Source: Verrucomicrobiales bacterium
Lineage (GTDB): Bacteria; Verrucomicrobiota; Verrucomicrobiia; Verrucomicrobiales; DEV007
Reading direction: 5' to 3'
DNA: 64,000 bases
NCBI GenBank assembly: GCA_030730365.1
Contig: JANQVJ010000012.1
Coordinates: forward strand, 108,642 to 172,641
Shown here: in pieces, positions 14,512 to 47,890 of the stretch
Position numbering within the stretch: position 1 is the first letter of the stretch
Layout of the letters: every line of letters begins with the position of its first letter
Notes under the pieces: generated by a model
Database searches by the model: none
What the model was told of the DNA's origin: nothing
What the model saw: the letters and a program-made list of their open reading frames with translations, nothing else
Position numbers and translations under genes: made by a program

Positions 14512-15993
14512 TCAGGTGATCATCTCCCGCAGGATGTGTCCGTGGACATCCGTGAGACGTCGGTCGATGCCGTTGTTTCTGACGCTGAGGCGCTCGTGGT
14601 CGATCCCGAGTTGGTGCAGGACCGTTGCATGGATGTCGTAGACGGAGGACGAGTGCGCGCGATCCTGCGGGCGGAATCCCCACTCGTCGCTCTCCCCGTA
14701 GGTGCCGCCCTTGATCCCGCCGCCGCAGAGCCAGTTGGTGAAAACGAAGGGGTTGTGATCACGTCCCTTGCTCCCCTGCGAGCAGGGCATGCGCCCGAAC
14801 TCAGTCGTCCAGAGGATGATGGTGTCGTCGAGCATGCCGCGTTGTTTGAGGTCTTTGATGAGGCCGGCGGTGCCGCGGGCCATGCCGAGGGCGAGGGGGC
14901 CGTGGTCGCGATGGATGTCCTCGTGACTGTCCCAGTTGCGGCGGGGGAACCCGTTGTCGTTTCCGCTCCAGATCTGCACAAATCTCACGCCGCGCTCGAG
15001 GAGTCGGCGGGCGACGAGACATTTTCGCCCGAAAAATTCGCTCTCGGCCTTTTCGTTGATGGTCGTGTCGTCGATACCGGGTCCCTCGGGAGCGAGGCCG
15101 TAGAGCGTCTTGATGTAGTCGGGTTCGCGTGAAAGATCGAGGGCATCGGTCGCGCTGAGCTGCATGGCTGCGGCGAGTTCGTAAGAGCGGACCCGGGCGC
15201 TGAGTCTGTCGTCGCCGGGGTGAGAAAGGGCGTGGAGGGAATTCAGCTGCGAGAGGGCATCGAGCCCGGCGCGGTCGTTCTGCGAATTGATGAAGCGGCT
15301 CGCGGGAGCGACGAGATCGGCGATGGGCGTTTCGCTGCCGGGTCGGATCACGGTGCCCTGGTGGCGGGCGGGAAGAAAGGCGTTGGCCCAGTTCTTCGAA
15401 CCGTTCGAGGCGAGTCCGCGATGATCGGGGAGAACAACGAAGGATGGCAGATTCTCACTCTCGCTCCCGAGTGCGTAGGAGACCCACGAGCCTGCACTGG
15501 GGAAGCCCGGAAAGGTAAAGCCTGTCGATTGCAGCAGGGTGCCCTGGCTGTGCACGCCGGTTTTCCCGACGACGTTGTGGACGAAGGCGATGTCATCGAC
15601 GACCTCGCCGAGCGGAGCGACGACCTCGCTGAGCATCTTGCCGCTCTGACCGTAAGGTTTGAAAGCCCACGGCCCGGCAAAGCAGGCGCCGGGGGTGCTT
15701 TGGAACAGCTCGACGGTCTCGCCCGGATCCCACGGGGTGCCGTCCTTTTCTTTCAGGAGCGGTTTATGGTCAAAGGTATCGACGTGGCTCGCCGCACCCG
15801 CCATGAAAAGCTGGATGACCCGCTTTGCCCGCGGCGGCGCATGGAGCACTCCCGAGAGGACGCCGTCCCGGGCAAGCATGTCCGTGAGCGCGAGACCGGA
15901 GAACGAGCCCGCGAGTGTGCCGAGAAACTGGCGGCGGTTGGAAAAAGTCAGTTCACGCCGGGGTTGGTGTGTGTTAATCTGTGGAGTTGTCAT
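14512..15993 (-). CDS. DUF1501 domain protein, Tat-exported
   Basis: SNRRQFL twin-arginine motif, AKRVIQLFMAG, FGRKCLVARRLLERGVRFVQI, TTEFGRMP, GRDHNP. Confidence 0.9.
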   Translation of the reverse strand: MTTPQINTHQPRRELTFSNRRQFLGTLAGSFSGLALTDMLARDGVLSGVLHAPPRAKRVIQLFMAGAASHVDTFDHKPLLKEKDGTPWDPGETVELFQSTPGACFAGPWAFKPYGQSGKMLSEVVAPLGEVVDDIAFVHNVVGKTGVHSQGTLLQSTGFTFPGFPSAGSWVSYALGSESENLPSFVVLPDHRGLASNGSKNWANAFLPARHQGTVIRPGSETPIADLVAPASRFINSQNDRAGLDALSQLNSLHALSHPGDDRLSARVRSYELAAAMQLSATDALDLSREPDYIKTLYGLAPEGPGIDDTTINEKAESEFFGRKCLVARRLLERGVRFVQIWSGNDNGFPRRNWDSHEDIHRDHGPLALGMARGTAGLIKDLKQRGMLDDTIILWTTEFGRMPCSQGSKGRDHNPFVFTNWLCGGGIKGGTYGESDEWGFRPQDRAHSSSVYDIHATVLHQLGIDHERLSVRNNGIDRRLTDVHGHILREMIT

Positions 15994-16249
15994 GGACGAA
16001 AATATTCAAGAGTTGGCTGATTCGATTTACCGCGAGAAAGTACGACGAGCGCGAAAGGCTTCACCGTCGAAAAAAATGGGATGGGGCGCTGAACTTTTTG
16101 CTGAAGTTTGCGGAAGAATGCGCTCGGGGATTCGATCACAACACCCGGAAGCCACCAACGCCGAAGTGGAAGCAATTCTTTGCAAGCGCCTGGATCGTCT
16201 TACAAGGCTGCATGAGTCGGGCGTTTTTGAGAAGACACCGAGACGATGA
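15992..16249 (+). CDS. Small basic helical protein, putative antitoxin/partner of the downstream nucleotidyltransferase
   Basis: 85 aa, MDENIQELADSIYREKVRRARK...GIRSQHPEATNAEVEAILCKRL. Stop overlaps the next start (ATGA). Confidence 0.6.
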   Translation: MDENIQELADSIYREKVRRARKASPSKKMGWGAELFAEVCGRMRSGIRSQHPEATNAEVEAILCKRLDRLTRLHESGVFEKTPRR

Positions 16250-16818
16250 AAAACGGTAATGCGGCGGCGGCCCGGGTTATTGATGTGCTCAATACGCTTG
16301 GAATCGATTTTTTCCTCGCCGGGTCCTATTCCTCCAACTACTACGGAATTCCGAGAGCAACGCAGGATGCCGATTTCGTCGCGGTGCTCTCGAACAACAT
16401 AGGACTGCTGTCTCGCGAGCTTGGGCCGGAGTTTGAATTGGATCCCCAGACTTCGTTTGAAGGGATTACGGGAACCCTGAGAGACATTTTCCAGGTGCCG
16501 TCTATTCCATTTAAAATTGAGATCTTCCACCTGAGCCAGGATGCCCACGACCAGTCCAGATTCGCTCGTAAGAGGAAAGTTTTCGACGAGATGCTTGGCC
16601 GGGAGGTCTACATTCCTTCGGTCGAGGACGTGGTCGTTACCAAGTTGAGGTGGGAGAAAAGGGGTAAACGAGGTAAAGACGGTAGTGACATCCGCGACGT
16701 CATTGCCGTGCAGGGCGACGAGGGTTTTGACTGGGATTACATCCAACGCTGGACAGAAGAGCACGGTACGCGAGAACTGCTCGACGAGATCCGGAGTTCT
16801 ATCCCGCCGATTGACTGA
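16246..16818 (+). CDS. Pol-beta superfamily nucleotidyltransferase (DUF6036/MNT-like), putative toxin-antitoxin component
   Basis: LAGSYSSNYYGIPRATQDADF = hGS..DxD motif, C-terminal KDGSDIRDVI, FDWDYIQRW. Confidence 0.75.
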   Translation: MKNGNAAAARVIDVLNTLGIDFFLAGSYSSNYYGIPRATQDADFVAVLSNNIGLLSRELGPEFELDPQTSFEGITGTLRDIFQVPSIPFKIEIFHLSQDAHDQSRFARKRKVFDEMLGREVYIPSVEDVVVTKLRWEKRGKRGKDGSDIRDVIAVQGDEGFDWDYIQRWTEEHGTRELLDEIRSSIPPID

Positions 16819-16834
16819 CTTGCTTAACCGTCGC

Positions 16835-19810
16835 TCACTCCACATACACAAAAGCGTTCAGGTTCATCACGACGCGGGCGAAGCTTTCTTCGCCGTGCTT
16901 TTTCAAATGGCCGACGAGCACCGCTCGTTCTTCCGGCGTGGGAAGGCGTCCGATCGCGAGGCGGCAGGCGAGGTCGACTTTTTCTTCCGGCGACGCGGGG
17001 GCTTCGCGGCGGAGACGTTCGGCGAAGTGGATCGACATGGCCTCGACGAAACGATTGTTCCATTGCGTCAGCGCCTGTAGGGCGGTGGTGGATTCGTCGC
17101 GCCCGGGCACGCTCATGGAAGGATCGGCGCAGTCGAGCGTCGTTAGCATGGGCTGCGGCTGCGAGCGCACGACAAAGCGGTAGATCGTGCGGCGGTGGGC
17201 GGCAGGGTCGTTTGGATCGTGGAGGTGATACTGGTAATGGGGCGAATGTGCGGGTTTTTCGATGACAAAATCCTGAAAGGGTTTGCCGCCGACTTTTCGA
17301 TCGAGTTTTCCGCTCACCGCGAGGACCGAGTCGCGGAACTCTTCCGCCGAGAGTCTCCGCCGGTTCGCGCGCCAGAGGATCGTGTTGCCTCCGTCGATCG
17401 CGGCATTCGCCTCGTCGTGCGCGACCGAACGCCGGTAGGCCTCACTCGTGACGAGGAGACGGACGATTGATTTTAATGACTTGTCAGGATCATTCCGCAG
17501 CGTCGCAGCGAGGTAGTCGAGCAGTTCGGGATGGGTCGGCTCCAATCCGCCGCGCCCGAAGTCATTCGGCGTGCCGACGAGGGGCGCGCCGAAGGTCCAC
17601 TGCCAAAGCCGGTTCGCGATGGAGCGCCACGCGAGCGGATTGTCATCGCGGACGAGGTAGGCGGCGAGGGCGGCGCGGGCTTTTCCTTCGTCCCAGGTCT
17701 CGCCGGCGAGTTCGGGGAACTGTTCCGCTACGCCCGACCAGAGCGGCGGGGCCCCCGGCGAAACGGCATCGCCGGGAGAGCTGAGGTCTCCGCGATGGAG
17801 CACGTGAATGGGACGCGGCTTGCCGTCAGTCGGGCGGAAGCTGCCGCCCTGAGTGAAACGCGTCGCCGCCGCGTAGACGAGTTCGCCTTGCGGGAAGGTC
17901 TTCAGCTGTTCCTCGAGAGGAGCGAGTTCTTTCCCTATCGCTTCGAGTCGCGCGACGCTATCGGGCGTGCGCAGCGATTCCTCGATGGCACGCCGTTCGC
18001 TCTGCAAGGCGTGGAGTTCGGCGAGCGCCTTGTCGTTGGATAGCTCGCGGTGGTAAATGCCATCGACGAGGTTTGTCTTTCGCCAGCGCTCGCCCGATTC
18101 GATGCTGTCTTTCGACGTCACTGTCGCCGCCTTCGCCAGATTGATGGCGTCGGCGGCGGCGATCACTTCGAATTCGGCGAGCGCAAGCATGTAGTCGTCT
18201 TTCCGCTCGGCCAGTTTCGTGGCGGTGAGGCGGACAAAACGAAAGGCGCGGTCTGCGGTCGGGATTGTGATCGGTGCGGTACGGGGATTGGCCTGGTCGT
18301 GGCCGGTCGCGTCGTGGACGATGACCACGCCGCTTTTGAATTCCGCCTCGTCGGAGACCTCGACGCGGTATCGAAGGGGAAAGCCGAAGCCGCCGCCGAT
18401 CCCGGCGAAGTCGTCGTAGGCCGGCCGCAGGCGGATCTCGGCGACGGGAGCGGACTGCCCGAGGTCGAGCTGCACCCATTTTTCCTCGTCGTTTTTCTTC
18501 GTGATCTGGCTGTGGAAGCCATACTGCGGCTTCAATTCGTCGGAGCCGTGCTGCGTCTTCAGTTCCTCGATGCGGCGATCCACTCCTGAAGCTTTTTCGG
18601 CGACGAGCTTTTTGAAATCCCCCTCGAGCTTGCTCTTTTCATTCTTCAGCGTGTTGATTCGCGAAGTCAGCTCGAGGCGCGCTTTTTCCCGCTCGGGCGG
18701 CAGTCCGGCGTAGACCCGGTCGGCGCGATCAACGGCGGCGAAGACGGCGTGGAGACGGTAGTAGTCCTCCATGCGGATGGGATCGAACTTGTGATGATGA
18801 CACTGCGCGCACTGCACCGTCGTGCTCTGGAACGCGTTGAAGGTGGCGGAGATCATCTCGTCGCGGTCGAGGTGCTTGGCGATGCGACCGTCGAGCTTGC
18901 CTTCGCCGACTTCCCAGTGTCCGATGAAATCCCAGGGACCCGCCGCGAGGAAGCCAAGGGCAACGACGCCGTCGGGATCTCCGGGGAAGAGGATGTCGCC
19001 GGCGACCTGCTCCTCTACGAAGCGGGAGAAGGACTTGTCCTCATTGAAGCTGCCGATGACGTAGTCGCGATAGGGCCAGGCATTGGTGCGTGGCTTGTCT
19101 TTGTCATAGCCGTGCGTCTCGGCGTAGCGGGCGAGGTCGAGCCAGTGCTGGGCGAACTTTTCGCCGAAGGCGGGCGAGGCGAGGAGCCGGTCGGTGAGGT
19201 GGCGGATGGCGGATTTTGGATTTTGGATCGATTCGGCTTCGAAGGCGGCGATTTCTTCGGGTGAGGGCGGCAGGCCGGTGAGGTCGTAGGAGAGGCGGCG
19301 AATGAGCACGGCAGGCGTCGCCGCGGCGACAGGCTTCAGGCCCCGTTCGGCGAGGCGCTTTTCGATGAAGTAGTCGACCGGATTCCGGCCTGACAGGGTT
19401 GACTCATCGACCAAACCCTCTTTGATCGGGCGCAGGGACCACCAGTCGAGATCGCGCGGGGGATTGTAGGCGAGGGTCCGTTCGGCCGGCCAGGGAGCCC
19501 CGGCGGCGATCCAGTCGGAAAGGATTTTGACTTGAGCGTCCGTGAGCGGGGCCTCTTTTTTCGGCATCTGCGGTTCGGGTCCCGAGACGATCTCGATGAG
19601 GTCCCCGATGGAGCCATGGGAAAAGGCGGTCTCACGCGAGGAAAGGTCGAACTTTCCCTTCTTCGCATCCGCGTCGTGGCAGAAGAGACACTTCGCCTCG
19701 AGGATGGGAGCGACGTCTTTCTCGAAGTCGGGAGCCGCCTCGAGCAATCCGGGCGTGGCGATGCCGAACGTGGCCACGCTAAGCAAAAAGAGGCGCTGCA
19801 TCTTGAACAT
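16835..19810 (-). CDS. PSD1 (DUF1553)/DUF1549/planctomycete cytochrome c protein with an inserted F5/8-type-C (discoidin-like) domain
   Basis: CLFCH, WWSLRP, LIRRLSYDLTG, WLDLARYAET, CAQCHHHKFD, NRLWQWTFG, HPELLDYLA, ALQALTQWN. Start estimated. Confidence 0.92.
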   Translation of the reverse strand: MFKMQRLFLLSVATFGIATPGLLEAAPDFEKDVAPILEAKCLFCHDADAKKGKFDLSSRETAFSHGSIGDLIEIVSGPEPQMPKKEAPLTDAQVKILSDWIAAGAPWPAERTLAYNPPRDLDWWSLRPIKEGLVDESTLSGRNPVDYFIEKRLAERGLKPVAAATPAVLIRRLSYDLTGLPPSPEEIAAFEAESIQNPKSAIRHLTDRLLASPAFGEKFAQHWLDLARYAETHGYDKDKPRTNAWPYRDYVIGSFNEDKSFSRFVEEQVAGDILFPGDPDGVVALGFLAAGPWDFIGHWEVGEGKLDGRIAKHLDRDEMISATFNAFQSTTVQCAQCHHHKFDPIRMEDYYRLHAVFAAVDRADRVYAGLPPEREKARLELTSRINTLKNEKSKLEGDFKKLVAEKASGVDRRIEELKTQHGSDELKPQYGFHSQITKKNDEEKWVQLDLGQSAPVAEIRLRPAYDDFAGIGGGFGFPLRYRVEVSDEAEFKSGVVIVHDATGHDQANPRTAPITIPTADRAFRFVRLTATKLAERKDDYMLALAEFEVIAAADAINLAKAATVTSKDSIESGERWRKTNLVDGIYHRELSNDKALAELHALQSERRAIEESLRTPDSVARLEAIGKELAPLEEQLKTFPQGELVYAAATRFTQGGSFRPTDGKPRPIHVLHRGDLSSPGDAVSPGAPPLWSGVAEQFPELAGETWDEGKARAALAAYLVRDDNPLAWRSIANRLWQWTFGAPLVGTPNDFGRGGLEPTHPELLDYLAATLRNDPDKSLKSIVRLLVTSEAYRRSVAHDEANAAIDGGNTILWRANRRRLSAEEFRDSVLAVSGKLDRKVGGKPFQDFVIEKPAHSPHYQYHLHDPNDPAAHRRTIYRFVVRSQPQPMLTTLDCADPSMSVPGRDESTTALQALTQWNNRFVEAMSIHFAERLRREAPASPEEKVDLACRLAIGRLPTPEERAVLVGHLKKHGEESFARVVMNLNAFVYVE

Positions 19811-19875
19811 GCCTGAAGATGAGGGATTTGCGGCCTCCCCACAAGCCACGAAAACGCGTCACACGGTGACGTCGA

Positions 19876-20517
19876 TCAGACGAGCCCTTCGCGCAGGGCT
19901 TTGGCGACGGCACCGCCGAGGGTGTTGACGTGGAGCTTGCGGTAGATGCGCCGCACGTAGTTGTCGACCGTGTGGATGCTAAGGTCGAGACGGTCGGCGA
20001 TCTCCTTCTTCGCCAGTCCGTCGACGAGGCAGCGTAGGACTTCCTCTTCACGCTCGGAGAGGTGCACCTCGCTGCCGGCCGGCTGGAGCTGGCTGAAGCG
20101 GGCGACGACGAGTCGGGCGATCTCGGGTGTCATGGGTGATCCGCCTTCGATGACCTCGCGCACCGCCGCGGCGATGCGGTCGGGGGACTCGGACTTCAGC
20201 AGGTAGCCCGAGGCTCCGGCGCAGAGGGCTTCGAAGATTTTTTCCCTGTCATCGAAGACGGTGAACATGACGATCTCGGTCGCGGGAAAGCGTTCTTTGA
20301 AAAGCCGGATGCCCGCAATCCCCGACATGCCGGATAGCCCGATGTCGAGAACGATCGCATCGGGGGCGGGACCGTCCGAGGCGAGGGCTGCCTCGCACGA
20401 AGCGAAGGTCGTCGCCAGGCCGGTGCCCGATTCCGTGATGATCTCGGCGAGTGTGGAGCGGAGGAGGGAGTGGTCCTCGACGATCCAGACGGCGGGCAGG
20501 GGGAGCGGGGCGGACAT
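19876..20517 (-). CDS. NarL/LuxR family response regulator
   Basis: IVEDH, VLDIGL receiver domain, GASGYLLK, LSEREEEVL..GLAKKEIADRLDLSIHTV HTH. Confidence 0.93.
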   Translation of the reverse strand: MSAPLPLPAVWIVEDHSLLRSTLAEIITESGTGLATTFASCEAALASDGPAPDAIVLDIGLSGMSGIAGIRLFKERFPATEIVMFTVFDDREKIFEALCAGASGYLLKSESPDRIAAAVREVIEGGSPMTPEIARLVVARFSQLQPAGSEVHLSEREEEVLRCLVDGLAKKEIADRLDLSIHTVDNYVRRIYRKLHVNTLGGAVAKALREGLV

Positions 20518-20519
20518 GG

Positions 20520-22508
20520 TCAGGGGCGGGGCAGGGGAATCTCGAGGATGACGTTGGTGCCGGCTCCGGGAGCAGACTCGATGTGGCAGGTTCCGCCGAG
20601 GACTCTCGCCCGTGCTTGGAAATTGAGAAGTCCGCGTCCGCGCCCCGTCTCCGGCGAGCTCAGGTCAAAGCCGGATCCGTTGTCGCCGACACGCATAGTC
20701 AGGGTGGAGTCGCTCCAGTTTATCCGAACGGTGACCGAGGTCGCTCCGGCGTGTTTTTGTGCGTTTGTCAGGGATTCCTTCAGAAAAAGGACGATCTCGC
20801 GCGCCCATTCGATGGGTGGGCTCCCGGCGGGCGGGTGACCCTCACTCTCGAAGCGATGCGCGACGCCCTCGAGGAGCCGTTCGGCGATGTTTTCCATCCG
20901 CGTCTCGAGATCGGTCCAGCTCCCCGCGACGGGGGCGAGCAGCCAGACGACGTCACGCATGTTGTCGAGCGTCTCGCGGGCGGAATCCGAGATCGAGGCA
21001 AGACGTTCCGCCACCGGATCACCCTCGCTGATGCGGCTGCGGGCGAGGTCGCTCTGCAGGGCGAGATGGCTGAGGCTGGCGCCGAGTTCGTCGTGGAGAT
21101 CACCGGCGATGCGCCGCTTCAACTCCTCCGCTGCGAGGACCGCGCGGCGGCGCTGGGCAAGGATGACGATGACGGCTCCGAGGGCGATAAGGACAACGGC
21201 GAGACCGGCGCCGTAGAGCCAACGCCGCAGCGTTTGTTCGCGATTTTTCTCGACGAGGATGGCGAGGGCACCGGCCCGTGTCTCCAGTTCCTCGCGCTCG
21301 GAGAGGGCATCGAGCCAGGCCTGCCACGAGGTGAGATCGTTGCGGCTGGAAAATCCGTCGGTGAGCGCCTCGAGACGCCAGAGGCCGGTCGTGGTCGCGT
21401 CGGCGGCGGTGACGTTTTTTCCGGCGGCGACATTTCCCCCTGCTGACCAGGCCTGCAGTTCGGCGAGGGCGAAGATGTAGTCATCGGTCCGTCGCCAGAG
21501 TTCCAGCGCTTCGACTCGGAGATAACGCACGGCACCACGAGTACCCGGGAGGATCACCGCGGCCGCCCCGGGGTTGCGATAGGGTGCCTCGCCGGAGTCG
21601 AAGATCACTGTTTCCACCCCGCTCGCGCTGCGCCCCGTCACCCGGAAGCGCGGCGGAAAACCGAAGCCCGCGGTATCGGCAAAGTCGCGCGGGTGGGCGG
21701 GAAAGAGGTGGATCCCGTCAATAACCGCGTCCCCGCCGAGATCGACCTCGACCCACTTCGGCGGGGTCGCTCCGCTCGTTTCGATGAGGCTGTGGTAGCC
21801 GTTGCTCGGAGACTCCGCTTTTCCCGCAAAGGGCAGACACCAGAGAAAGCCGTCGGTGAGATTCGAGACCTGCCAGCGGGGAGCGTTCTCGATCGAGGCC
21901 GTCGTCGTGACGGATCGGTGCAGCGCGACGTTGGCGCCTTTCTCCAGCACGACAATCTCGCCGAGAGTGAAGAAGTTACCGCGCCCGGTGCCGCGCTCCC
22001 TCGATCCGGTGACGGATACCCTGACAAATCGACCACTTGCTCCGTTCCCCGAGATGCGGAGAAAAGGCAGCCTGGTCGCGGCTCCGTCGGTCTCTTCGCT
22101 CCAGCGGACGAGGCGGATGGGACGGGCAAAGGTCACCTCGTCCGCGATCTCGACAGTGACGGCGGGCGGGAATCCATTCGACGCATCACTGCCCGGTGCG
22201 TCGGTGGGAAGGCGGGCAGGGAAGAGAATGATCTCGTCGGGGATGACTTCGCGACCGAGATCGACGACGAGGTGATTAGGATCACGCGGCGTGCCGTAGA
22301 GACCGATGCGTCCGTGGATCTGCTCGGAGGGGATCAAGGTGGGGAGCGTCCCGAGGAGACTTCCGAGGTCTTCCAGTTGTTGCTGCGGCGATGCTGAGGG
22401 ATCCTGTGCGAGAGACGGCTGCGACAGGCTTAGAGCGACTGAGAGCGAGAGGAATGAGACGGTGGGATTCAATACGGTTGAATCATAGCATGGCGCAGGA
22501 TGAGGCAA
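20520..22508 (-). CDS. Sensor histidine kinase (HisKA_3/HATPase) with tandem extracellular discoidin-like domains
   Basis: Signal peptide, two xVDLG...RxxRV...LxE units, one TM (WLYGAGLAVVLIALGAVIVILA), RIAGDLHDELG, ESLTNAQKH, DNGSGF, GRGLLN. True start may be TTG at 22472. Confidence 0.9.
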   Translation of the reverse strand: MPHPAPCYDSTVLNPTVSFLSLSVALSLSQPSLAQDPSASPQQQLEDLGSLLGTLPTLIPSEQIHGRIGLYGTPRDPNHLVVDLGREVIPDEIILFPARLPTDAPGSDASNGFPPAVTVEIADEVTFARPIRLVRWSEETDGAATRLPFLRISGNGASGRFVRVSVTGSRERGTGRGNFFTLGEIVVLEKGANVALHRSVTTTASIENAPRWQVSNLTDGFLWCLPFAGKAESPSNGYHSLIETSGATPPKWVEVDLGGDAVIDGIHLFPAHPRDFADTAGFGFPPRFRVTGRSASGVETVIFDSGEAPYRNPGAAAVILPGTRGAVRYLRVEALELWRRTDDYIFALAELQAWSAGGNVAAGKNVTAADATTTGLWRLEALTDGFSSRNDLTSWQAWLDALSEREELETRAGALAILVEKNREQTLRRWLYGAGLAVVLIALGAVIVILAQRRRAVLAAEELKRRIAGDLHDELGASLSHLALQSDLARSRISEGDPVAERLASISDSARETLDNMRDVVWLLAPVAGSWTDLETRMENIAERLLEGVAHRFESEGHPPAGSPPIEWAREIVLFLKESLTNAQKHAGATSVTVRINWSDSTLTMRVGDNGSGFDLSSPETGRGRGLLNFQARARVLGGTCHIESAPGAGTNVILEIPLPRP

Positions 22509-23003: not shown

Positions 23004-24461
23004 TCATCCCATCAACGCCTTCACCGGCTTCACCATCTCCACACCGGTAAGTCGACCGTCGAGGCCCTGGTGTTTGTAGGTGAGGCGAAGGTGATCGAAG
23101 CCTAGCAGGTGCATCACGGTGGCGTGGAATTCGCTGATGTGGAGCGGATCGCGGACGATGTTGTAGCTGAAGTCGTCGGTCTCGCCGTAGATCGTTCCGC
23201 CTTTAGCCCCTCCTCCGGCCATCCACATGCTGAAGCAGCGGGGATGGTGGTCGCGTCCGTAGTTTTCCTTCGAGAGATTTCCCTGACTGTAAATGGTGCG
23301 TCCGAACTCCCCGCCCCAGATGATGAGCGTGTCTTCGAACATGCCGCGCTGCTTGAGATCCTGAATGAGGGCGGCGCAGGGCTGGTCGATGTCGCGGCAC
23401 TGGTCGGGCATGCGGCCGCCGACATTGGAGTGGTGGTCCCAGTTGTTGTGATAGATCTGGACAAAGCGCACCCCGCGCTCGGCGAGACGGCGGGCCATGA
23501 GGACGGAGTTGGCAAAGCTCCCGGGCTTCTTCGCGGACTCGCCGTAGAGCTTGTAGACGTGATCGGGCTCGGACGCAATGTCGGTGAGTTCGGGCACGCT
23601 CGCCTGCATGCGGAAGGCCATTTCGTATTGCTGGATGCGGACGCGGGTCTCGGGATCGCCGAAGGCCTCGTAGTTCATCTGGTTCATCCCGTTGATCCCC
23701 TCGATCGTCTGCCGACGGACGGAGTTAGGTACGCCGGGAGGATTGTTGATGAAGAGGATGGGATCGCCCTTGCTGCGGAAGGAGACGCCGGCGTGTTCTC
23801 CGGGGAGGTATCCGCTCGACCAGAGGCGGGCGGAGATGGCCTGCTCCTGCTCGCGGTTGGTCGGGGTCGCGACGAGGACGACGAAGGTGGGCAGATTTTC
23901 ATTCATCGAACCGAGCCCATAAGAAGCCCATGCCCCGAGGCAGGGCCGTCCGGTGACCTGATTGCCGGTTTGCATTGCGGCGATGGCGGGCTCGTGATTG
24001 ATTGCCTCGGTGTGGAGGGAACGCATCCAGCAGATGTCGTCGGCGCGTTCGCCGAGGTGGGGGAGCAGGTCGGAGTTCATCCACATGCCGCACTCGCCGC
24101 GCTGCGCGAAGTTGAACTTCGACGGAGCGATGGGGAAGCGGGCCTGGCCACTCGTCATCGTGGTAAGACGCTGCCCCTGCCGGATACTCTCGGGGAGGTC
24201 TTTGTCATACATCTTCACCATCTCAGGCTTGTAGTCGAAGAGATCCATCTGCGAAGGTCCACCGACCATGTGGAGGTAGATGACGCGTTTCGCCTTGGCG
24301 GGGAAGTGGGTCACGGGGAGCGAGACTTCGGGCTCGGCCGCGGAAAAGACCCGGCGCGGACCCATCAGCGACGCGAGAGCGGCGGAGCCGAGGAGATTAC
24401 GACCTTTCGCGAAGAAATGGCGGCGGGTTTGGTTGAGGAGAAGGTCGGGGGGGAGGTTCAT
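23004..24461 (-). CDS. DUF1501 domain protein, Tat-exported
   Basis: QTRRHFF twin-arginine motif, AKRVIYLHMVGGPSQMDLFDYKP, ARRLAERGVRFVQ, GGEFGRT, GRDHHP. Confidence 0.92.
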   Translation of the reverse strand: MNLPPDLLLNQTRRHFFAKGRNLLGSAALASLMGPRRVFSAAEPEVSLPVTHFPAKAKRVIYLHMVGGPSQMDLFDYKPEMVKMYDKDLPESIRQGQRLTTMTSGQARFPIAPSKFNFAQRGECGMWMNSDLLPHLGERADDICWMRSLHTEAINHEPAIAAMQTGNQVTGRPCLGAWASYGLGSMNENLPTFVVLVATPTNREQEQAISARLWSSGYLPGEHAGVSFRSKGDPILFINNPPGVPNSVRRQTIEGINGMNQMNYEAFGDPETRVRIQQYEMAFRMQASVPELTDIASEPDHVYKLYGESAKKPGSFANSVLMARRLAERGVRFVQIYHNNWDHHSNVGGRMPDQCRDIDQPCAALIQDLKQRGMFEDTLIIWGGEFGRTIYSQGNLSKENYGRDHHPRCFSMWMAGGGAKGGTIYGETDDFSYNIVRDPLHISEFHATVMHLLGFDHLRLTYKHQGLDGRLTGVEMVKPVKALMG

Positions 24462-24578: not shown

Positions 24579-27500
24579 CTATTTATTCAGCGCCTCATCC
24601 AAATTCATTAACTGATTGCAAACCATCGTCCACGCCGCGAGGACGGGCGGGGCGATGGCTTTTTCGGCGGGGTTTTCGCCCACGGCGAGGAGGGCGGCGG
24701 TGTCTTCGGGAGTCGTCTGGTAGTGGCTGAGGAGCGAGTGATGGCTCGACTGCATAAGGTTTTTCTCGACCTCGCTGAGGGGTCGGGAAAGGAGACGGCG
24801 GGCGATGAGGTCGAGGGTGTGTTCGTCGTCACCTTTGCTCTCCTGCAGGGCGAGGGTCGCGAGGCGTCGGGCGGCTTCGATGAACTGGGGATCGTTCAGC
24901 GTCACGAGCGCCTGAAGCGGGGTGTTGGTGCGGTCGCGCTTGAGACAGCTGACCTCGCGGTTTGGTGCATTGAAGATTTCCATGCTCGCCGGCGGGGCCA
25001 TGCGCTTCCAGTAGTTGTAGACAGTGCGACGATAAAGGCCATCGCCTTTGTCCTGTGCGTATTTGGCGTTGCCCATGCCGACGGTTTCCCAGACGTTCTC
25101 GGGTTGGTAGGGTTTCGTGCCGGGACCACCCATGGTGGTGGAGAGCGTCCCGCTCGCGGCAAGGGCGCTGTCGCGTATCATCTCGCCGTCCATGCGGTAG
25201 CGCGGACCGCGGCTGAGGAGGCGATTGTCGCGGTCTTTCTCGATCTTGTCCGGGGTAGCCATTGCGGACTGACGGTAGGCGGACGACATGAGGATAGTCT
25301 TGAAAAGGGCTTTCGTGTCCCAGCCCGATTCGATGAATGTCAGGGCGAGCCAGTCGAGGAGTTCGGGGTGGCTGGGGGCGGCGCCCATGAGCCCGAAGTC
25401 GTCGGGGGTGGCGACGATGCCGGTGCCGAAGATCTCCTGCCAGAAGCGATTCACGGTGACGCGGGCGGTGAGAGGATTCTGCGGATCGACGAGCCACTTT
25501 GCAAGGCCGAGGCGGTTCGCGGGAGCACCCTCAGGGAGCGGGTGGAGGACGGCAGGCGGGGCGGCGGCGACCTGCTCACCGACCATGTCGTAGGCACCGC
25601 GCTCGAGGATGTTCGCCATCGCGGGCGAGTCCTTTTTCTCTTCCTGGATGTGGGTCACGGGGCTGCGCCCTTTGATCGTGTCGCGCTCACCCTCGAGTTT
25701 TGCGACGGCGAGATTGAGATCCTGCCAGGGCTTGTCGCGGGTCGCCAGGTAGTTGGCGAAAAGACTCTCAGTCTGTTCGGGCTTGCGCTTCTCCCCGGCG
25801 GCAAGGGCAGCATTGAGAGCGGGGAGTTGGTGGAGACTGGCTGCCTCGGCGGGGGTGAGTCGCTTGGTGAAAAGGCGCAGGTCCTGGACCTGCCCGTCTT
25901 CGAAGAACATGCCGGTGCTGCGCTGACCGAGGCGCAGGGGCGTGTTCGTACGGGTCTCGGCGTCGGCCTTGAGTTTGTCGGTGGTGGCGCGCAGGGGAGT
26001 GTCGGCTCCGTTCACGTAGAGTTTCACGCCGCCGGGTTTGCCGCTGCCGTCATAGGTCACAGTGAGGTGTTGCCACTGGCCGGGTGAGAGGACGGCGCGG
26101 GTCGTGGTGACCTTGAGCGCGTTTTCGGGCCAGGTGTCGATGAGGTGAAAGGCGAGGTTGCGGTTTTCCTGGAGGATGTCCCAGCCGCGGTGAGCTGCCT
26201 TGTCATCCATGCGGGCGATGATGGATCCGCTGAAGCCATCTTTCGGCGAGCGGACCCAGAGGGAGATGGTGAATGGTTCGTTGCGGGCGAAGTTTCCGAG
26301 ATCACCGAGTTCGATTGGAGTTTCTTTTTTCAGAACAGGGGCTTGACCGAATTTGCCTCCAGCAGCCCAGGCGAGTTCTCCGGTCGCTTTGAAGTTCGCT
26401 CCGGCGGGCAGTCGCGCGGCGAGATCCGGGCCCTTGCCCTCGTTAAGCGGGAGATGGGCGACGAGGCCGTCTTCGGGCATGGTGTCTTCAAGGGCGGCCG
26501 GTGTCGCGGAGGCGAGCCAGGTGTCGAATTCGGGCTTCGCGGCGTTGCGGCGTTCCTGTCGTTTTGTCGAGGCGGCGGTGATCTCGCCGGGCAGGGCGGT
26601 CCAGCGGGGGCGATCGGCGTCGCCCGGGACGACGAGGATGGGGCCGCTGTCTTTCACGTTGCCGTCCTTGGGACCCTGGGTCGTGTTGCGGAAAAAGGCG
26701 GCCATGGAGTAATAGTCCTTCGCCGAGAGGGGGTCGAACTTGTGATCGTGGCACTGCGCGCAGTTGAGAGTGAGGCCGAGATAGATCCAACCGAGGGTCT
26801 GGACCCTGTCAGAGGCATAAAGGGCGATGTTTTCCTCGTCGATCGTGCCGCCTTCGTTGGTCGTCATGTTGCAACGCTGGAAGCCGGTCGCGATGAGCTG
26901 GTCTTCGGTGGGCGAGGGGAGGAGGTCGCCGGCGATTTGCTCGACAGTGAACTGGTCGAAGGAAAGGTTGCGGTTGAAGGCACCGATGACCCAGTCGCGG
27001 TAGAGCCACATCTCGCGGTAATTGTCGAAATGGAGACCATGGGTGTCGGCGTAGCGGGCCGCGTCGAGCCAGTAGCGGCCGCGGTGCTCGCCCCAGTGCG
27101 GCGAGGCGAGGTACTGATCGATTAGCTTTTCGTAGGCCTTCGGATCCTGATCGGCGACAAAGGTCTCGACCTCGGCGGGGGTCGGGGGCAGGCCGGTGAT
27201 GTCAAGAGCAACGCGCCGGGCGAGGGCGCGGCGATCTGCCTCTGGTGCCGGAGAGAGTCCGGCCTTGTCAAGTCCGGCGAAGATGAATTGATCGATGGGA
27301 TTCGATACCCGGTCCTTTGCCGAGACTTCGGGGAGAGCGGGTTGCTCAGGCTTAACAAAACTCCAGTGTGGCTGCCATTTCGCCCCGTCGTTGATCCATC
27401 GGCGGATGATCTCGATCTGCTCGGGCTTGAGTTCCTTGTGGGAATCCGGCGGCGGCATGATGTCGTCGGGACTGTCAGCGATAAGGCGATCGTAGAGGGG

Positions 27501-27743
27501 GCTATCGTCGGCCTTGCCCGGTATCACAACGGGATCGTTCCCGCCTTCGCCGAAGAAGCTCTGCTCGGTGTCGAGTCGCAGGTCCGCCTTACGGGTGCCG
27601 GAATCGGGACCGTGGCAATGGAAGCAGGCGTCCGCGAGGATGGGCCGCACGTCGCGGTTGAACGAGAGCGGAGTATCGGCGCCCTCGAGGCGCGAGACAG
27701 TGATGAGGGCCGTCGGGAGCAGAAAGAGAAATTTCCGGATCAT
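24579..27743 (-). CDS. PSD1 (DUF1553)/DUF1549/planctomycete cytochrome c protein with an inserted LamG (concanavalin-A-like) domain
   Basis: CFHCHGPD, WLDAARYADT, CAQCHDHKFD, FTISLWV...WQHLTVTYDG...LYVNG...LRLG LamG pattern, SHPELLDWLA, TPLQALVTLN. Confidence 0.92.
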   Translation of the reverse strand: MIRKFLFLLPTALITVSRLEGADTPLSFNRDVRPILADACFHCHGPDSGTRKADLRLDTEQSFFGEGGNDPVVIPGKADDSPLYDRLIADSPDDIMPPPDSHKELKPEQIEIIRRWINDGAKWQPHWSFVKPEQPALPEVSAKDRVSNPIDQFIFAGLDKAGLSPAPEADRRALARRVALDITGLPPTPAEVETFVADQDPKAYEKLIDQYLASPHWGEHRGRYWLDAARYADTHGLHFDNYREMWLYRDWVIGAFNRNLSFDQFTVEQIAGDLLPSPTEDQLIATGFQRCNMTTNEGGTIDEENIALYASDRVQTLGWIYLGLTLNCAQCHDHKFDPLSAKDYYSMAAFFRNTTQGPKDGNVKDSGPILVVPGDADRPRWTALPGEITAASTKRQERRNAAKPEFDTWLASATPAALEDTMPEDGLVAHLPLNEGKGPDLAARLPAGANFKATGELAWAAGGKFGQAPVLKKETPIELGDLGNFARNEPFTISLWVRSPKDGFSGSIIARMDDKAAHRGWDILQENRNLAFHLIDTWPENALKVTTTRAVLSPGQWQHLTVTYDGSGKPGGVKLYVNGADTPLRATTDKLKADAETRTNTPLRLGQRSTGMFFEDGQVQDLRLFTKRLTPAEAASLHQLPALNAALAAGEKRKPEQTESLFANYLATRDKPWQDLNLAVAKLEGERDTIKGRSPVTHIQEEKKDSPAMANILERGAYDMVGEQVAAAPPAVLHPLPEGAPANRLGLAKWLVDPQNPLTARVTVNRFWQEIFGTGIVATPDDFGLMGAAPSHPELLDWLALTFIESGWDTKALFKTILMSSAYRQSAMATPDKIEKDRDNRLLSRGPRYRMDGEMIRDSALAASGTLSTTMGGPGTKPYQPENVWETVGMGNAKYAQDKGDGLYRRTVYNYWKRMAPPASMEIFNAPNREVSCLKRDRTNTPLQALVTLNDPQFIEAARRLATLALQESKGDDEHTLDLIARRLLSRPLSEVEKNLMQSSHHSLLSHYQTTPEDTAALLAVGENPAEKAIAPPVLAAWTMVCNQLMNLDEALNK

Positions 27744-42520: not shown

Positions 42521-43951
42521 ATGGATTTGCCCGACCCCATACCGCTACCCGGACCACCCGCATTGCCTGTAGCGGACGAGGGCATCGTCGCATCGCCCCG
42601 CCCTGACGCGGTTCGTAAGGCGGCCTGGTGGAGTTGGCCGCTCATCGCCCTCGCACTTTTCCCGTTCAGCTGGTTTGATCAAGGCACGGCCCCCGGGGTC
42701 GAGAGCCCCGCCCCGGCGCACAATCCGAGTGATCTCGCGATTTTAAAAATGCAGGGCCAGGTCGTCATCGCGACTTTCAGGCTCAATCCGCTCGCGGCAA
42801 AGGAAGCTCTCGAAGACCTCTCCAGGGTCGCCGTCGATGATCACTCGGTCGCGGCGCTCGTCCTGCTCGAGTGTTTTGTGCAGCTCGATTCGCCCCGGAT
42901 CGATTCACTCTTGCAGCGTTTTTCGAAAGGCGTCCCCGATGACCTCGCCGCCGCGACCGAGTCCGCCGTCTCGGGCGGGGTTGACGAGACGATGCGCGAG
43001 GACTTGCGGGATCATCTCGGCTGGTTCGCCGATCTCGCGCGGGGGCCCGGACTCGTCGCGCCTCCGCAGGATGAGGCGATCCGCGTGCGCTCCCTCGTCG
43101 TGATGGGAGCGATGGGGCTGGTCTTCACCGGCGGCATGATCGGGATCCTCGTCGGCGGGGTCCTTCTCTTCCTGCATCTGCGCCGGCTCAGAGAGGGGAA
43201 AACGGTCAATGCCTTCGTCCCCGGGCGTGGACCGGCCGGGGTGCTGCTGGAGTGTTTTGCCCTCTACCTGGGGATCATGACCGTCGGCGCGCTCGTCGGT
43301 GCCTACCTTTACGAGCCCTTTGGCATCATCAGCTACGTCGCGGCGGTGGTCATTCCGCTGCTGTGGCCGCGGGTCCGCGGGGTGAGCATGGCGGACTTCA
43401 ATGCGGCGATCGGCCTCCATCGCGGAAAAGGCTGGGGCAAAGAGATCGCCGCCGGCGCCGTCGGGTATCTCGGGGTAATAGCGATCGCCTCGGTCGGGAT
43501 CTCACTGATGCTCCTCCTCACCTACCTTGCCGGTTTGTTTCAAGAGGGCGGCAGTTCCCTGCTGCCGGGCGGCGCGGCGGCGGGCGGAGGAGAAGCGGTC
43601 GGTCCGGAGGCTCATCCCGTCGTCGGCTGGATGTATTACGGGGACTTCTGGACGAAGCTCGCCACTCTCGGACTCGCGGCGGGATTTGCACCGGTCTTTG
43701 AAGAGATCTTTTTCCGAGGCGCGCTCCATCGTTACTTCCGGGGCCGTTTCCGCTTCCTTGCCTCGGCACTGCTCACCGGTGTGATCTTCGCCGCTCTGCA
43801 TCCCCAGGGATTTTTCGCCATCCCCGCTCTCGCGAGCGTCGGAATCGGCTTTTCGCTGCTGCGCGAATGGCGCGACTCGCTCGTCGCCCCCATGGTCGCC
43901 CACGCGATCAACAACGGTGCGCTCGTGCTGATGCTCTGGTGGATTCTGTGA
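42521..43951 (+). CDS. CPBP (CAAX protease/Abi) family intramembrane glutamic endopeptidase with an N-terminal extension
   Basis: EEIFFRG, FAALH, HAINN motifs, multiple TMs. Confidence 0.88.
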   Translation: MDLPDPIPLPGPPALPVADEGIVASPRPDAVRKAAWWSWPLIALALFPFSWFDQGTAPGVESPAPAHNPSDLAILKMQGQVVIATFRLNPLAAKEALEDLSRVAVDDHSVAALVLLECFVQLDSPRIDSLLQRFSKGVPDDLAAATESAVSGGVDETMREDLRDHLGWFADLARGPGLVAPPQDEAIRVRSLVVMGAMGLVFTGGMIGILVGGVLLFLHLRRLREGKTVNAFVPGRGPAGVLLECFALYLGIMTVGALVGAYLYEPFGIISYVAAVVIPLLWPRVRGVSMADFNAAIGLHRGKGWGKEIAAGAVGYLGVIAIASVGISLMLLLTYLAGLFQEGGSSLLPGGAAAGGGEAVGPEAHPVVGWMYYGDFWTKLATLGLAAGFAPVFEEIFFRGALHRYFRGRFRFLASALLTGVIFAALHPQGFFAIPALASVGIGFSLLREWRDSLVAPMVAHAINNGALVLMLWWIL

Positions 43952-43984
43952 ATCCCCGATCCTGCCGCTTCGAGAGGCCACCTA

Positions 43985-44150
43985 AGCAGGAAGGAAATTA
44001 AGTATTCTTAATTATAAAAACATCTTGATTAATAAGTTTTGGCGCGATAGTCTAAAATCAATAAAAAAGCCATAAAATAGCAATTGTGCCATTATTTTAA
44101 GGTTTTGTAGCTACAATCAGGTGTAATAAAAGTTTCCCAGACTCAAGCAG
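43985..44150 (+). promoter_or_regulatory. AT-rich promoter region of the Mgl-like cluster
   Basis: Hand count about 23-30% GC over 43981-44100, against about 60-70% in flanks. Candidate -10 GCTACAAT at 44110-44117. Confidence 0.5.
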
Positions 44151-44155
44151 GTGCC

Positions 44156-45925
44156 ATGTCTTTTTCTTTTCGAAACATTTTTTCCCCGGATGAAGGAGAC
44201 CTGGAGGGATCTCCTTCCGGTTTTGTGCTTCCGTCGGATTCGGCTGACGGTGAAATGAGCCGCGGCGGGGTCGAAGCGGAAATTGCCGTTCCTCAATTAC
44301 CGGGGCAGGAGTATCTCGTCAGTGAACTTATCGCCTTTATCCCCCCGTCGATCTCGGCGCAGAGTGGCATCCCGATGGCGCGTGAGCTGCGGATCCCGCT
44401 TCCCTCCGACGGTAGTCGCGACGTGAAGCTATCGACGATTTATCAGATCTGCCCCGAGCTTTTCGGCTCCGAGATTACTCCGCTCAATGACTCCATCGTG
44501 ACTCTGCCGCCCAAGCTCGGAGCGATGATGGGGGAGGGCATTGCCGCCCCCGCGGCGGACAAACTCGCGGCTGGATTCGGTGCCACCCCGGCTTCTTTCC
44601 CCGTGAGGGCTGGCAATCCATTCACCGCGATTCCCAGAGACATGAAAGACGACACGACCCGATCCCGTCAGGCTGAAGCGCCCGCGTGGCCCATGGAGGT
44701 CGTCGAAGGGCTCAATCCCTTCGCCGGCACCCCTGCAACGAGTGGAAGCGCATCTTCAGTGGATACAGTTGAGGGCTCTACCGGAGGTTTTGCGGGATTC
44801 GATTCCATGCCCTCTTCCGTCCTTTTCGGGGACGGTGCCAGTGCCGTGACGAACGAAGTAGACGAGAAGGGTGGAAAAGATTTCCCGGGAAATCCCTTCG
44901 AAAGCGAACAGGGCTTCAAGACCCTTTTCTCGATGCAGGCCGAGGTTGATAGGGATATTCCCTTTTCGGGCGCTCCGACACCCGGCCCGGCGTTCACGCC
45001 TAGTGAGCAGATCGAAGAGCCCCGGGGCATCTGGGGCACGATGTTCCACGGGGCGGGACTCCCAGAGGCAGATACGGCGCTCGCGGGAGACGAGTCGTTT
45101 TCTCCGCCGACCTTTAAGAGCATGGGAAATCTTTTGAAACAGGTGACAGGTCCGGCTGCGGTAACTCCTCCGGTCGACTTTCAATCCGCAATCGAACCGG
45201 CAGCACCGTCGGCATCCGCTCCTGCCCCGGCAAACGGGCCCAAAGTGACTGAGCTGGCGCAGAAAGAGGCGATCGCGCCGGTTTCTGGAATCCCCGCCTT
45301 TACCGCATCCACTCAGGGATTCGCGGGATTCGCGGGATTCGGGTCCGATACGGGGTCGACCCTGTCGCCAATCGATGCCTTTGCTAGTGGAGTGCCTTTT
45401 GAGGCGACTGCTCCGGCACCGGCGGTTTTTGAAGCTCCTGCTCCCGTGGTAGAGGCCCCCCTTGCGCCCGAGCCGCTCACTGCCCTCGCTCCCGCCGCCG
45501 CGAGGGCGACGGCTCCCGCTGCTGGTGAGGCGAGCTTCGACATGCGCGATCTCGAGTTGCGCGCGATTTTCTCGACGAGTGAAAATTTCACCCTCTCGAT
45601 GGTGGCACGCCGCGTCGTCGGTCTGCCGGGCATTGTCAGTTGTTCACTCTCGACTCCCGGCAATTTGGTCCAAGCCTCGAAGTCCGAAGACGCTAGCATC
45701 AGCAACGAGGCCCCGGAGATGGTCGCAATCGTGCGCAGTCTCGCGAAGCTGACGGGTCTGCCCGAGGCACGTAATTTTACCCTGCAAACCGATCGCGGCA
45801 TCATCAGCCTTTTCGTCGAGGGAGAGTGCTGTGTCATGGTTCATCACGAGGCGGTGACCTTCGAGCCTGGTGTGCGCGAAAAACTCATCCTCGTGGCGAG
45901 GCGTCTCATTGATCTGGAGGAATAG
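44156..45925 (+). CDS. Largely disordered protein with a C-terminal roadblock/LC7-like domain
   Basis: Long P/A/G/F-rich low-complexity middle. C-terminal LPGIVSCSLSTPGNLV...FTLQTDRGIISLF...GVREKLILVARRL has the roadblock pattern. Next to mglA. Confidence 0.65.
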   Translation: MSFSFRNIFSPDEGDLEGSPSGFVLPSDSADGEMSRGGVEAEIAVPQLPGQEYLVSELIAFIPPSISAQSGIPMARELRIPLPSDGSRDVKLSTIYQICPELFGSEITPLNDSIVTLPPKLGAMMGEGIAAPAADKLAAGFGATPASFPVRAGNPFTAIPRDMKDDTTRSRQAEAPAWPMEVVEGLNPFAGTPATSGSASSVDTVEGSTGGFAGFDSMPSSVLFGDGASAVTNEVDEKGGKDFPGNPFESEQGFKTLFSMQAEVDRDIPFSGAPTPGPAFTPSEQIEEPRGIWGTMFHGAGLPEADTALAGDESFSPPTFKSMGNLLKQVTGPAAVTPPVDFQSAIEPAAPSASAPAPANGPKVTELAQKEAIAPVSGIPAFTASTQGFAGFAGFGSDTGSTLSPIDAFASGVPFEATAPAPAVFEAPAPVVEAPLAPEPLTALAPAAARATAPAAGEASFDMRDLELRAIFSTSENFTLSMVARRVVGLPGIVSCSLSTPGNLVQASKSEDASISNEAPEMVAIVRSLAKLTGLPEARNFTLQTDRGIISLFVEGECCVMVHHEAVTFEPGVREKLILVARRLIDLEE

Positions 45926-47798: not shown

Positions 47799-47890
47799 AG
47801 TCCCTCGCCGGGCACTAATTGCTTGGCGGGGCGGACATCGTGTGTTACACACTTATTCCCCGTGATCTTGGCTGAAACACCGTCTCTCTT

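Follow-up and report, generated by a model that had tools for sequence, protein, structure and literature searches.

Locus architecture

The 64,000-nt window (the whole stretch of Verrucomicrobiales DNA analysed here) holds an operon of two minus-strand genes, encoding DUF1549/DUF1553 and DUF1501 proteins, whose members are separated by two plus-strand genes for a small helical protein and a nucleotidyltransferase (NTase). These two plus-strand genes and their leader, hereafter the module, are the subject of this report. The features of the locus are given below; L- and P-numbered names denote relatives' loci and alleles that were compared with the window.

14512-15993, minus strand: DUF1501 gene (493 amino acids; PF07394, E = 9e-130), the downstream gene of the interrupted operon
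15940-15991, plus strand: module leader (TGTGTTA-N8-GGAG...ATG), which read on the minus strand is an 18-codon N-terminal extension of DUF1501 (MTTPQINTHQPRRELTFS)
15991-15994: CATG palindrome with both start codons, ATG 15992-15994 (plus strand, small gene) and ATG 15993-15991 (minus strand, DUF1501)
15992-16249, plus strand: menA1-like antitoxin gene (85 amino acids, three predicted helices)
16043-16687, plus strand: module core of ~645 bp, exchanged through recombination in a close relative (45-60% nucleotide identity between the window and L024)
16246-16818, plus strand: menT1-like NTase gene, putative toxin (190 amino acids)
16819-16834: gap of 16 nt between the convergent stop codons of the NTase and DUF1553 genes
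16835-19849, minus strand: DUF1549/DUF1553 (PSCyt2 + PSD1) gene (1004 amino acids; PF07587, E = 7e-74; PF07583, E = 2e-72), the upstream gene of the interrupted operon

An earlier note on this DNA described two plus-strand genes, joined by an ATGA overlap, between the minus-strand DUF1553 and DUF1501 genes, and the coordinates and sequence of the open reading frames (ORFs) bear this out: at 16246-16249 the antitoxin stop overlaps the NTase start. The start of 15981 given there is that of a GTG ORF in a different frame, which runs to 16259; the conserved small gene instead has its ATG at 15992, preceded by GGAG. The DUF1501 protein carries a Tat-type RRQFL signal motif, and the N-terminus of the DUF1549/DUF1553 protein is cytochrome-c-like. 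The convergent stops are, as claimed, 16 nt apart, with no terminator-like structure in the gap and none on the minus strand within 15400-17400. Genes of one operon separated by oppositely oriented genes constitute the geometry of a noncontiguous operon, and in this sense the proposed arrangement is real.

A second DUF1501/DUF1553 pair in the window (23004-24461 and 24579-27743) is also closely spaced, with 117 nt between the genes against the ~120 bp reported before, yet it is a paralogue with 33-35% identity to the first pair and therefore a weak comparator for the first junction.

The lower GC content that had been hand-counted for the module holds on measurement. The small gene has 50.8% GC and the NTase gene 53.2%, versus 61-63.5% in neighbouring genes, and at third codon positions (GC3) the values are 45%, 63% and 78-82%, respectively. 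The module is the lowest-GC 827-nt stretch of the window (52.6% vs a mean of 61.0%, z = -3.1, 0.13% of windows as low). However, module GC was below flank GC in 13/13 loci checked, irrespective of neighbourhood, and hence says nothing about when the insertion took place. Two more stretches, at 43619-44817 and 47139-48079, have a GC content no more than 1 point from the module's minimum and cover parts of long ORFs and intergenic DNA.

Relationship of the gene pair to MenAT1

We consider it likely that the two plus-strand genes form a toxin-antitoxin (TA) pair of the MenAT1 type, situated in an old insertion of ~895 nt within the DUF1553-DUF1501 operon and subject to allele exchange. MenAT1 is the Rv0078B-Rv0078A TA system of Mycobacterium tuberculosis, in which Rv0078B is MenA1, the cognate antitoxin of MenT1 (PDB 8AN4, 8AN5, 8RR5; PMC10435456, PMC11375011). 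The pair is read as MenAT1-type because the NTase and the small protein each independently point to that system. A Pol-beta-type NTase with a small antitoxin partner had been proposed from the letters alone, and the comparison narrows that proposal to a MenT1/MenA1 (Rv0078A/Rv0078B)-like pair.

For the NTase, a PDB search with the single sequence returned only noise, but the family profile matches two PDB entries, 8an4 (M. tuberculosis MenT1, Rv0078A; E = 1e-3) and 5uvd, a fungal NTase-like protein. The AlphaFold (AF2) model built from 43 sequences has a predicted local distance difference test (pLDDT) score of 93.1, and its first five Foldseek matches (8an5_A, 8an4_A, 8an5_B, 8an4_B and 8rr5) are all MenT1, with template modelling (TM) scores of 0.62-0.70 and E values of about 1e-7 over full-length alignments of 188-199 columns; ANT(2'')-Ia, 5uvd and JHP933 come next. 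A G-S...R37-x-T39-x-D41-x-D43 motif, K133, R142 and D145 are invariant in the 43 sequences, and D148 is conserved in at least 90%. When mapped by a hidden Markov model alignment to 8an4, together with the residue list in PMC10435456, window residues R37, T39, D41, D43, K133, R142, D145 and D148 align with MenT1 R37, T39, D41, D43, K137, R146, D149 and D152. In MenT1, T39, D41, D43, K137 and D152, plus R37, R146 and D149, have been shown or modelled to be catalytic or nucleotide-binding (PMC10435456, PMC11375011). The domain searches suggested in the earlier note (DUF6036, AbiEii) also found weak matches in relatives, to AbiEii/DUF1814 in 34 of 43 family members (E < 0.01, best 6e-7) and to DUF6036 in 30 of 43.

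The NTase family is large. A search found 625 homologues, nearly all of ~190 amino acids, and those with a source name derive from metagenome-assembled genomes (MAGs) of Verrucomicrobiota; 17 genome loci with the NTase were found in Planctomycetota MAGs. Against 1.84 billion cluster representatives, the NTase profile reached 175 clusters (50% identity) at E ≤ 1e-30 and 2531 at E ≤ 1e-10. Phage collections yielded no record with a relative, and plasmid collections only three distant ones (27-31% identity).

Evidence for the small protein comes mostly from its relatives. PF18993, the Rv0078B-related antitoxin family, is matched by 15 of 20 small-protein family members from related loci (best E = 5e-6), and several database relatives have a precomputed PF18993 assignment. 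The AF2 model consists of three helices (pLDDT 84). The small gene lies upstream of the NTase gene in 23/23 loci first examined, and a 4-nt overlap between its stop and the NTase start is present in at least 20 of 22 loci. Two Phycisphaerae MAGs have two tandem antitoxin-like small genes upstream of the NTase gene (L011, 5411-5605 and 5777-5944; L012, 5511-5684 and 5780-5917).

Several results weigh against the MenAT1 assignment. Structural matches between the NTase and MenT1 have only 15-17% identity, and the window NTase itself falls just under the Pfam cut-off for AbiEii/DUF1814 (PF08843; 20.5 vs 22.5 bits). The window small protein likewise scores below the PF18993 cut-off (17.4 vs 27.1 bits). 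The MenA1 chain 8an5_C ranks fifth among Foldseek matches to its model (TM-target 0.69 over 43 columns, root-mean-square deviation 1.7 Å) at a non-significant E of 1.5, which is consistent with the assignment but not evidence for it. The small-protein family profile missed the MenA1 chain in the PDB at E ≤ 10 and gave spurious matches to TPR and TRPA1. PADLOC (E ≤ 1) and NCBIfam scans matched neither module protein, and the suggestion that the pair belongs to a typical Abi or defence-module class thus finds no support in PADLOC.

Could the NTase be something other than a toxin? It might be a small-molecule or antibiotic NTase of the ANT(2'')/Lnu kind, or else the antitoxin of an MNT-HEPN-like pair in which the small protein would be an accessory or the toxin. 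ANT(2'')-Ia, LnuA and other minimal NTases are indeed fold neighbours too (TM 0.47-0.60), but MenT1 structures rank first, over the full length, and the upstream position of the small gene with translational coupling is typical of TA pairs. The partner matches the MenA1 antitoxin family rather than HEPN: it yielded neither a HEPN motif nor a match to a HEPN family, the Rx4-6H motif is not conserved, and H51 is replaced by F in most members, for which reasons we rejected a HEPN-MNT pair. An orphan small gene persists in a relative in which the NTase gene is deleted (L035, below), which fits the NTase being the harmful partner. We regard a non-toxin NTase as very improbable.

On the MenAT1-type reading, the toxicity of the 190-residue NTase is putative, by homology to MenT1. 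The enzyme would add nucleotides to the 3' acceptor ends of tRNA, as MenT1 does, and so block translation, and the translationally coupled 85-residue helical protein would bind and neutralise it, as MenA1 does. The MenAT1 antitoxin-toxin complex is an asymmetric 1:2 assembly that induces auto-phosphorylation of T39 in the toxin; by homology, the antitoxin studied here may do the same to the conserved T39.

Empty and occupied junctions

We retrieved 80 metagenomic loci via the DUF1501 protein, most with a DUF1553 gene directly upstream. The comparison with relatives that the earlier note proposed did uncover empty sites. The junction is empty in L025, L026, L027, L030, L031, L033 and L034, whose DUF1501 proteins are 76-87% identical to that of the window, and in all of these except L027 the distance from the DUF1553 stop to the DUF1501 start is 2-13 nt, or the two overlap. 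The empty-site gap is wider in three orthologues (L027, 124 nt; L037, 109 nt; L039, 162 nt). The ancestral DUF1553-DUF1501 state was thus, in most cases, a tight operon. Because the empty-site orthologues are mostly tightly joined, window positions 15940-16834 (895 nt) can be recognised as extra DNA, an insertion.

The same junction is occupied by a module in relatives whose DUF1501 proteins are 75-97%, and DUF1553 proteins 53-77%, identical to those of the window:

L019: DUF1501 97%, NTase 97%
L020: DUF1501 88%, NTase 88%
L024: DUF1501 91%, NTase 59%, DUF1553 74%
L104-107: DUF1501 87.5% (tblastn; 86% by MAFFT), NTase 60%
L028: DUF1501 83%, NTase 64%
L108: DUF1501 78-80%, NTase 65%
L110/111: DUF1501 75%, NTase 72%, DUF1553 53%

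The insertion appears to be old and entrenched in this verrucomicrobial orthologue group, not recent, because modules occur at the same junction in relatives with as little as 75% DUF1501 identity, and the allele classes found there are saturated at synonymous sites. Of the horizontal, and by implication recent, acquisition that had been suggested, insertion into a tight operon therefore stands, while recency conflicts with same-site occupancy at 75-92% DUF1501 identity. The earlier note also held that presence of the module at this site throughout the lineage would speak against its reading. This is partly the case: the same site is occupied in L020, L024, L028, L104, L108 and L110, but occupancy is patchy, with occupied lineages down to 75% DUF1501 identity and empty ones at 76-87%.

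One point counts against a single old insertion. Ancient insertion followed by losses requires several clean deletions, each restoring the tight DUF1553/DUF1501 junction, and lateral spread by recombination in the flanks, or repeated insertion, may have occurred instead. A search for flanking direct or inverted repeats or attachment (att)-like sites gave only short, chance-level matches, and no recombinase genes were found.

Some of the occupied loci have peculiarities of their own. L104-L107 carry an extra 190-residue gene (e.g., L105:2120-2692, minus strand) between DUF1501 and a GFO/IDH/MocA oxidoreductase gene; its product has a signal-peptide-like N-terminus and no Pfam match, is not an NTase, and is absent from the window. 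The L028 DUF1553 gene has an in-frame stop about 280 codons before its own stop (HSPHY*YHLHDP) where the window has Q, which could be a pseudogene, a sequencing error or recoding.

Allele classes, core exchange and decay

Three allele classes occupy the junction: the window type, the L024/P0109/P0093 type and the L028/P0051/P0038 type. They are ~60% identical to one another, with synonymous sites saturated, and do not track DUF1501 kinship. In DUF1501, occupied L104 and empty L025 are 92% identical, and L108, which has an L028-type allele, shares 90% with L035. The window-type NTase is nearer to alleles elsewhere than to the other same-site classes (79% identical to L018, in a DUF4126/polA neighbourhood, and 75% to L021). 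Among nine alleles sampled regardless of context, three lie at the DUF1553/DUF1501 junction and the rest elsewhere. Two of the sampled alleles are near other defence or TA genes, one next to a gene for a BrxC/BrxD-like protein and a DEAD-box helicase gene (L112:160-4160) and one near a ParD/ParE pair (L114:1457-2016), which suggests defence- or TA-island settings.

The comparison of the window with L024 is the most informative. Nucleotide identity is 80-95% in DUF1501, 84% in the first ~50 nt of the small gene and 87-88% from 16688 into DUF1553, with the 45-60% core in between. Third-codon-position identity, which is free of protein constraint, changes in the same places: 82% for antitoxin codons 1-17 and 30-38% for codons 18-85, then 32-40% for toxin codons 1-147 and 77% for codons 148-190, against 66-70% in DUF1501. 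As a control, the module ends share only 41-53% third-position identity with alleles from other contexts (L018/L021). Since the module ends are as similar as the flanks and the core is diverged, the ends can be taken as orthologous along with the flanks and the ~645-bp core as replaced. The core has thus been replaced by a distant allele through homologous recombination, with ends and flanks kept; the L024 core is 99.5% identical to P0109. The replacement was most likely on the L024 side, because L020, the nearest to L024 in DUF1501 (92%), carries a window-type allele.

At L035:3630-3960 (DUF1501 79-81% identical), an intact L024-type antitoxin gene is followed by only five NTase codons (MKDGY), which run into the DUF1553 stop. 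Read from its sequence, this locus directly shows toxin deletion with an orphan antitoxin left behind, and hence that occupied sites decay.

The L024 flanks are themselves unequal, with DUF1501 91% but DUF1553 74% identical to the window; the corresponding pairs in other orthologues are 87/81, 83/68 and 80/61, a trend from which L024 departs. This suggests that the L024 flanks recombined too.

The alleles bear on whether MenAT1-like modules entered the DUF1553/DUF1501 junction repeatedly and independently, as at a targeted hotspot. Three classes with saturated synonymous divergence could be expected from such a history. The DUF1501-side junctions differ (CATG overlap in the window, L024, L104 and L110, a 25-nt spacer in L028, a 56-nt spacer in L108), and by DUF1501 identity the occupied loci are scattered among empty ones (L104 92% to empty L025, L108 90% to L035). 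However, the repeats, att-like sites and recombinase genes of a targeted process were not found, the window/L024 mosaic explains divergent alleles by replacement within retained module ends and so needs no new insertions, CATG geometry and the 18-residue extension are common to lineages as distant as the window and L110, and L035 documents loss by deletion. We find repeated insertion unlikely, and favour one old, entrenched insertion with core exchange and occasional loss.

Capture of the DUF1501 start codon

In loci with an empty site, DUF1501 proteins begin at MNRRxFL or slightly before it, and their homology to the window protein sets in at codon 19 of the latter. The preceding 18 residues, ending at CATG, are present in the window, L019, L020, L024, L104 and L110, which also have the CATG start-codon overlap in common. 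The leader motif TGTGTTA-N8-GGAGTTC-ATG recurs in allele L018 in an unrelated neighbourhood, and therefore at least ~30 nt of the leader belong to the module. In the window there is no other in-frame start codon before the Tat motif of DUF1501, so its translation begins in module-derived DNA. By these comparisons, DUF1501 has taken a new start codon within the module leader.

The signals of the two genes are interlocked. The GGAG of the small gene sits in DUF1501 codons 3-4, and the opening codons of the small gene form the DUF1501 initiation region. The extensions of the window and L024 share 56% of their amino acids but 72% of their third positions, a pattern that would fit constraint at the DNA rather than the protein level.

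Antisense geometry and expression

So, do the operon and the module control each other? By geometry, unless both mRNAs are leaderless, each of the two divergent genes must have its promoter within the coding or leader region of the other. The module transcript and any DUF1501 transcript thus very probably overlap at their 5' ends. Should DUF1501 and DUF1553 share a transcript, antisense RNA would cover the whole module in the manner of a noncontiguous operon, which is plausible from the arrangement of the genes. Noncontiguous operons, or excludons, are documented in Staphylococcus aureus (menE-menC-MW1733-ytkD-MW1731), some with TA systems (PMC7154746, PMC11034616).

Metatranscriptome (Logan) contigs from lakes and freshwater lie inside the module (X29, 16000-16190; X25, 16021-16272; X28, 16271-16502) at a depth of 2-7, similar to DUF1501; these contigs are unstranded and may include DNA, and none crosses 15935-15999 or 16819-16834. 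Contigs X34 and X15 span the junctions and are of unknown or DNA type. A sigma-70 scan of 15400-17400 found one plus-strand site, inside the NTase gene, and none on the minus strand; the phylum's promoter types are outside the scan. A plus-strand hairpin at 16877-16894, with a T-run to 16903, lies inside DUF1553. We rejected it as a module terminator: it also occurs in empty-site L025 and L027 as a by-product of G-E-x-x-F-A-R codons, and one such site is within chance expectation.

The earlier note envisaged a recent horizontal TA island whose mRNA is fully covered by DUF1553-to-DUF1501 antisense read-through, making expression of operon and module mutually exclusive. The low GC and GC3 of the module would suit a recent island; the tight operons of empty-site orthologues, the lack of a terminator-like site in the 16-nt gap or on the minus strand, and TA systems among the S. 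aureus noncontiguous operons (PMC11034616) would suit read-through. Recency, however, is contradicted by same-site occupancy at 75-92% DUF1501 identity and by synonymous saturation between allele classes, and GC is low in 13/13 loci. Read-through faces an 840-nt untranslated antisense stretch that would be open to Rho-dependent termination, and the RNA contigs do not cross the module junctions. We judge this combination of claims improbable as a whole. Taken by itself, antisense read-through with mutual exclusion may be a reasonable hypothesis, with its precedent in S. aureus.

Alternatively, there may be no regulatory coupling. DUF1553 transcripts would then end within or before the module, DUF1501 would have a promoter in the first part of the small gene, and the module would be a tolerated selfish insertion. 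Many lineages have retained the arrangement, even though they still need to make DUF1501. When the window is compared with L024, synonymous sites in the first ~50 nt of the small gene show unusually high identity (82% vs 66-70% in DUF1501), as would fit a second function on the opposite strand, and loci with the CATG geometry share a conserved A/T-rich sequence immediately before the DUF1501 ATG. Set against this, the sigma-70-type scan returned no minus-strand promoter, although the phylum's own promoter types lie beyond its reach, and the protein sequence encoded by these N-terminal codons of the small gene is itself conserved in other contexts. We put this possibility a little short of an even chance.

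The opposite extreme is that the module is a built-in part of a deeply conserved noncontiguous operon. Its leader would give DUF1501 its start, antisense transcription would set the toxin/antitoxin balance and vice versa, and the retained ends, with their host-gene signals, would act as recombination anchors for cassette-like swapping of the specificity core. We hold so integrated an arrangement to be more doubtful still than recent acquisition with mutual exclusion.

Directly upstream of the DUF1553 gene are a LuxR-type response regulator gene (19876-20517, minus strand) and a histidine-kinase-like gene (20520-22508, minus strand). The N-terminal part of the histidine-kinase-like protein resembles the F5/8-type-C middle region of the DUF1553 protein (27-38% identity by tblastn). 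These two proteins may regulate the DUF1553-DUF1501 operon.

Significance

The MenAT1 family has been characterised in M. tuberculosis, with only 21 recognised menA1 homologues (PMC10435456). If our assignment is correct, the family is extended by a large, previously unnamed clade in Verrucomicrobiota and Planctomycetota. The junction also provides a natural series for the entrenchment of a TA system in a host operon, from empty site through full module (in three allele classes) and swapped core to orphan antitoxin. The same series may shed light on the exchange of TA specificity and on a possible role of antisense geometry in regulating TA modules. The start-codon capture by DUF1501 shows cleanly how inserted DNA can supply signals to a host gene. 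The interest of the locus lies mainly in this capture, in the same-site allele series and in the recombinational core swap.

Comparison with known systems

Like MenT1, the putative window toxin is a protein of ~190 amino acids with a minimal bi-lobed NTase fold, with T39, D41 and D43 at identical positions and corresponding K, R and D residues in its helical lobe. As in MenAT1, the putative antitoxin is small and helical, is without a DNA-binding domain and is encoded immediately upstream; most of its relatives match PF18993. The differences are substantial. The window toxin is 15-17% identical to MenT1 and both window proteins are under Pfam gathering thresholds, the antitoxin has 85 amino acids versus 68 in MenA1, and the hosts are Verrucomicrobiota and Planctomycetota. 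No TetR-type repressor adjoins the window module, whereas Rv0078 represses menAT1. The window pair, known here from sequence and models, is embedded antisense in a host operon.

The AbiEii/DUF1814 proteins (MenT3, MenT4, AbiE type IV/VII) and DUF6036 belong to the same NTase superfamily as the window NTase. However, MenT3, MenT4 and AbiEii are much longer (about 290 amino acids), the window partner is not of the AbiEi/COG5340 or MenA3 type, and there is no PADLOC match.

The arrangement at the junction finds its parallel in S. aureus, where noncontiguous operons likewise have genes split by one or more opposite genes, lack a terminator between the convergent ends and include TA systems. There, the pattern comprises co-transcription and reciprocal regulation, by transcriptional interference or RNase III, and the likeness of the window is one of gene geometry. 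Unlike the menE-menC case, the interrupting unit here is a two-gene module, probably a TA system, whose leader supplies the start codon of the downstream host gene.

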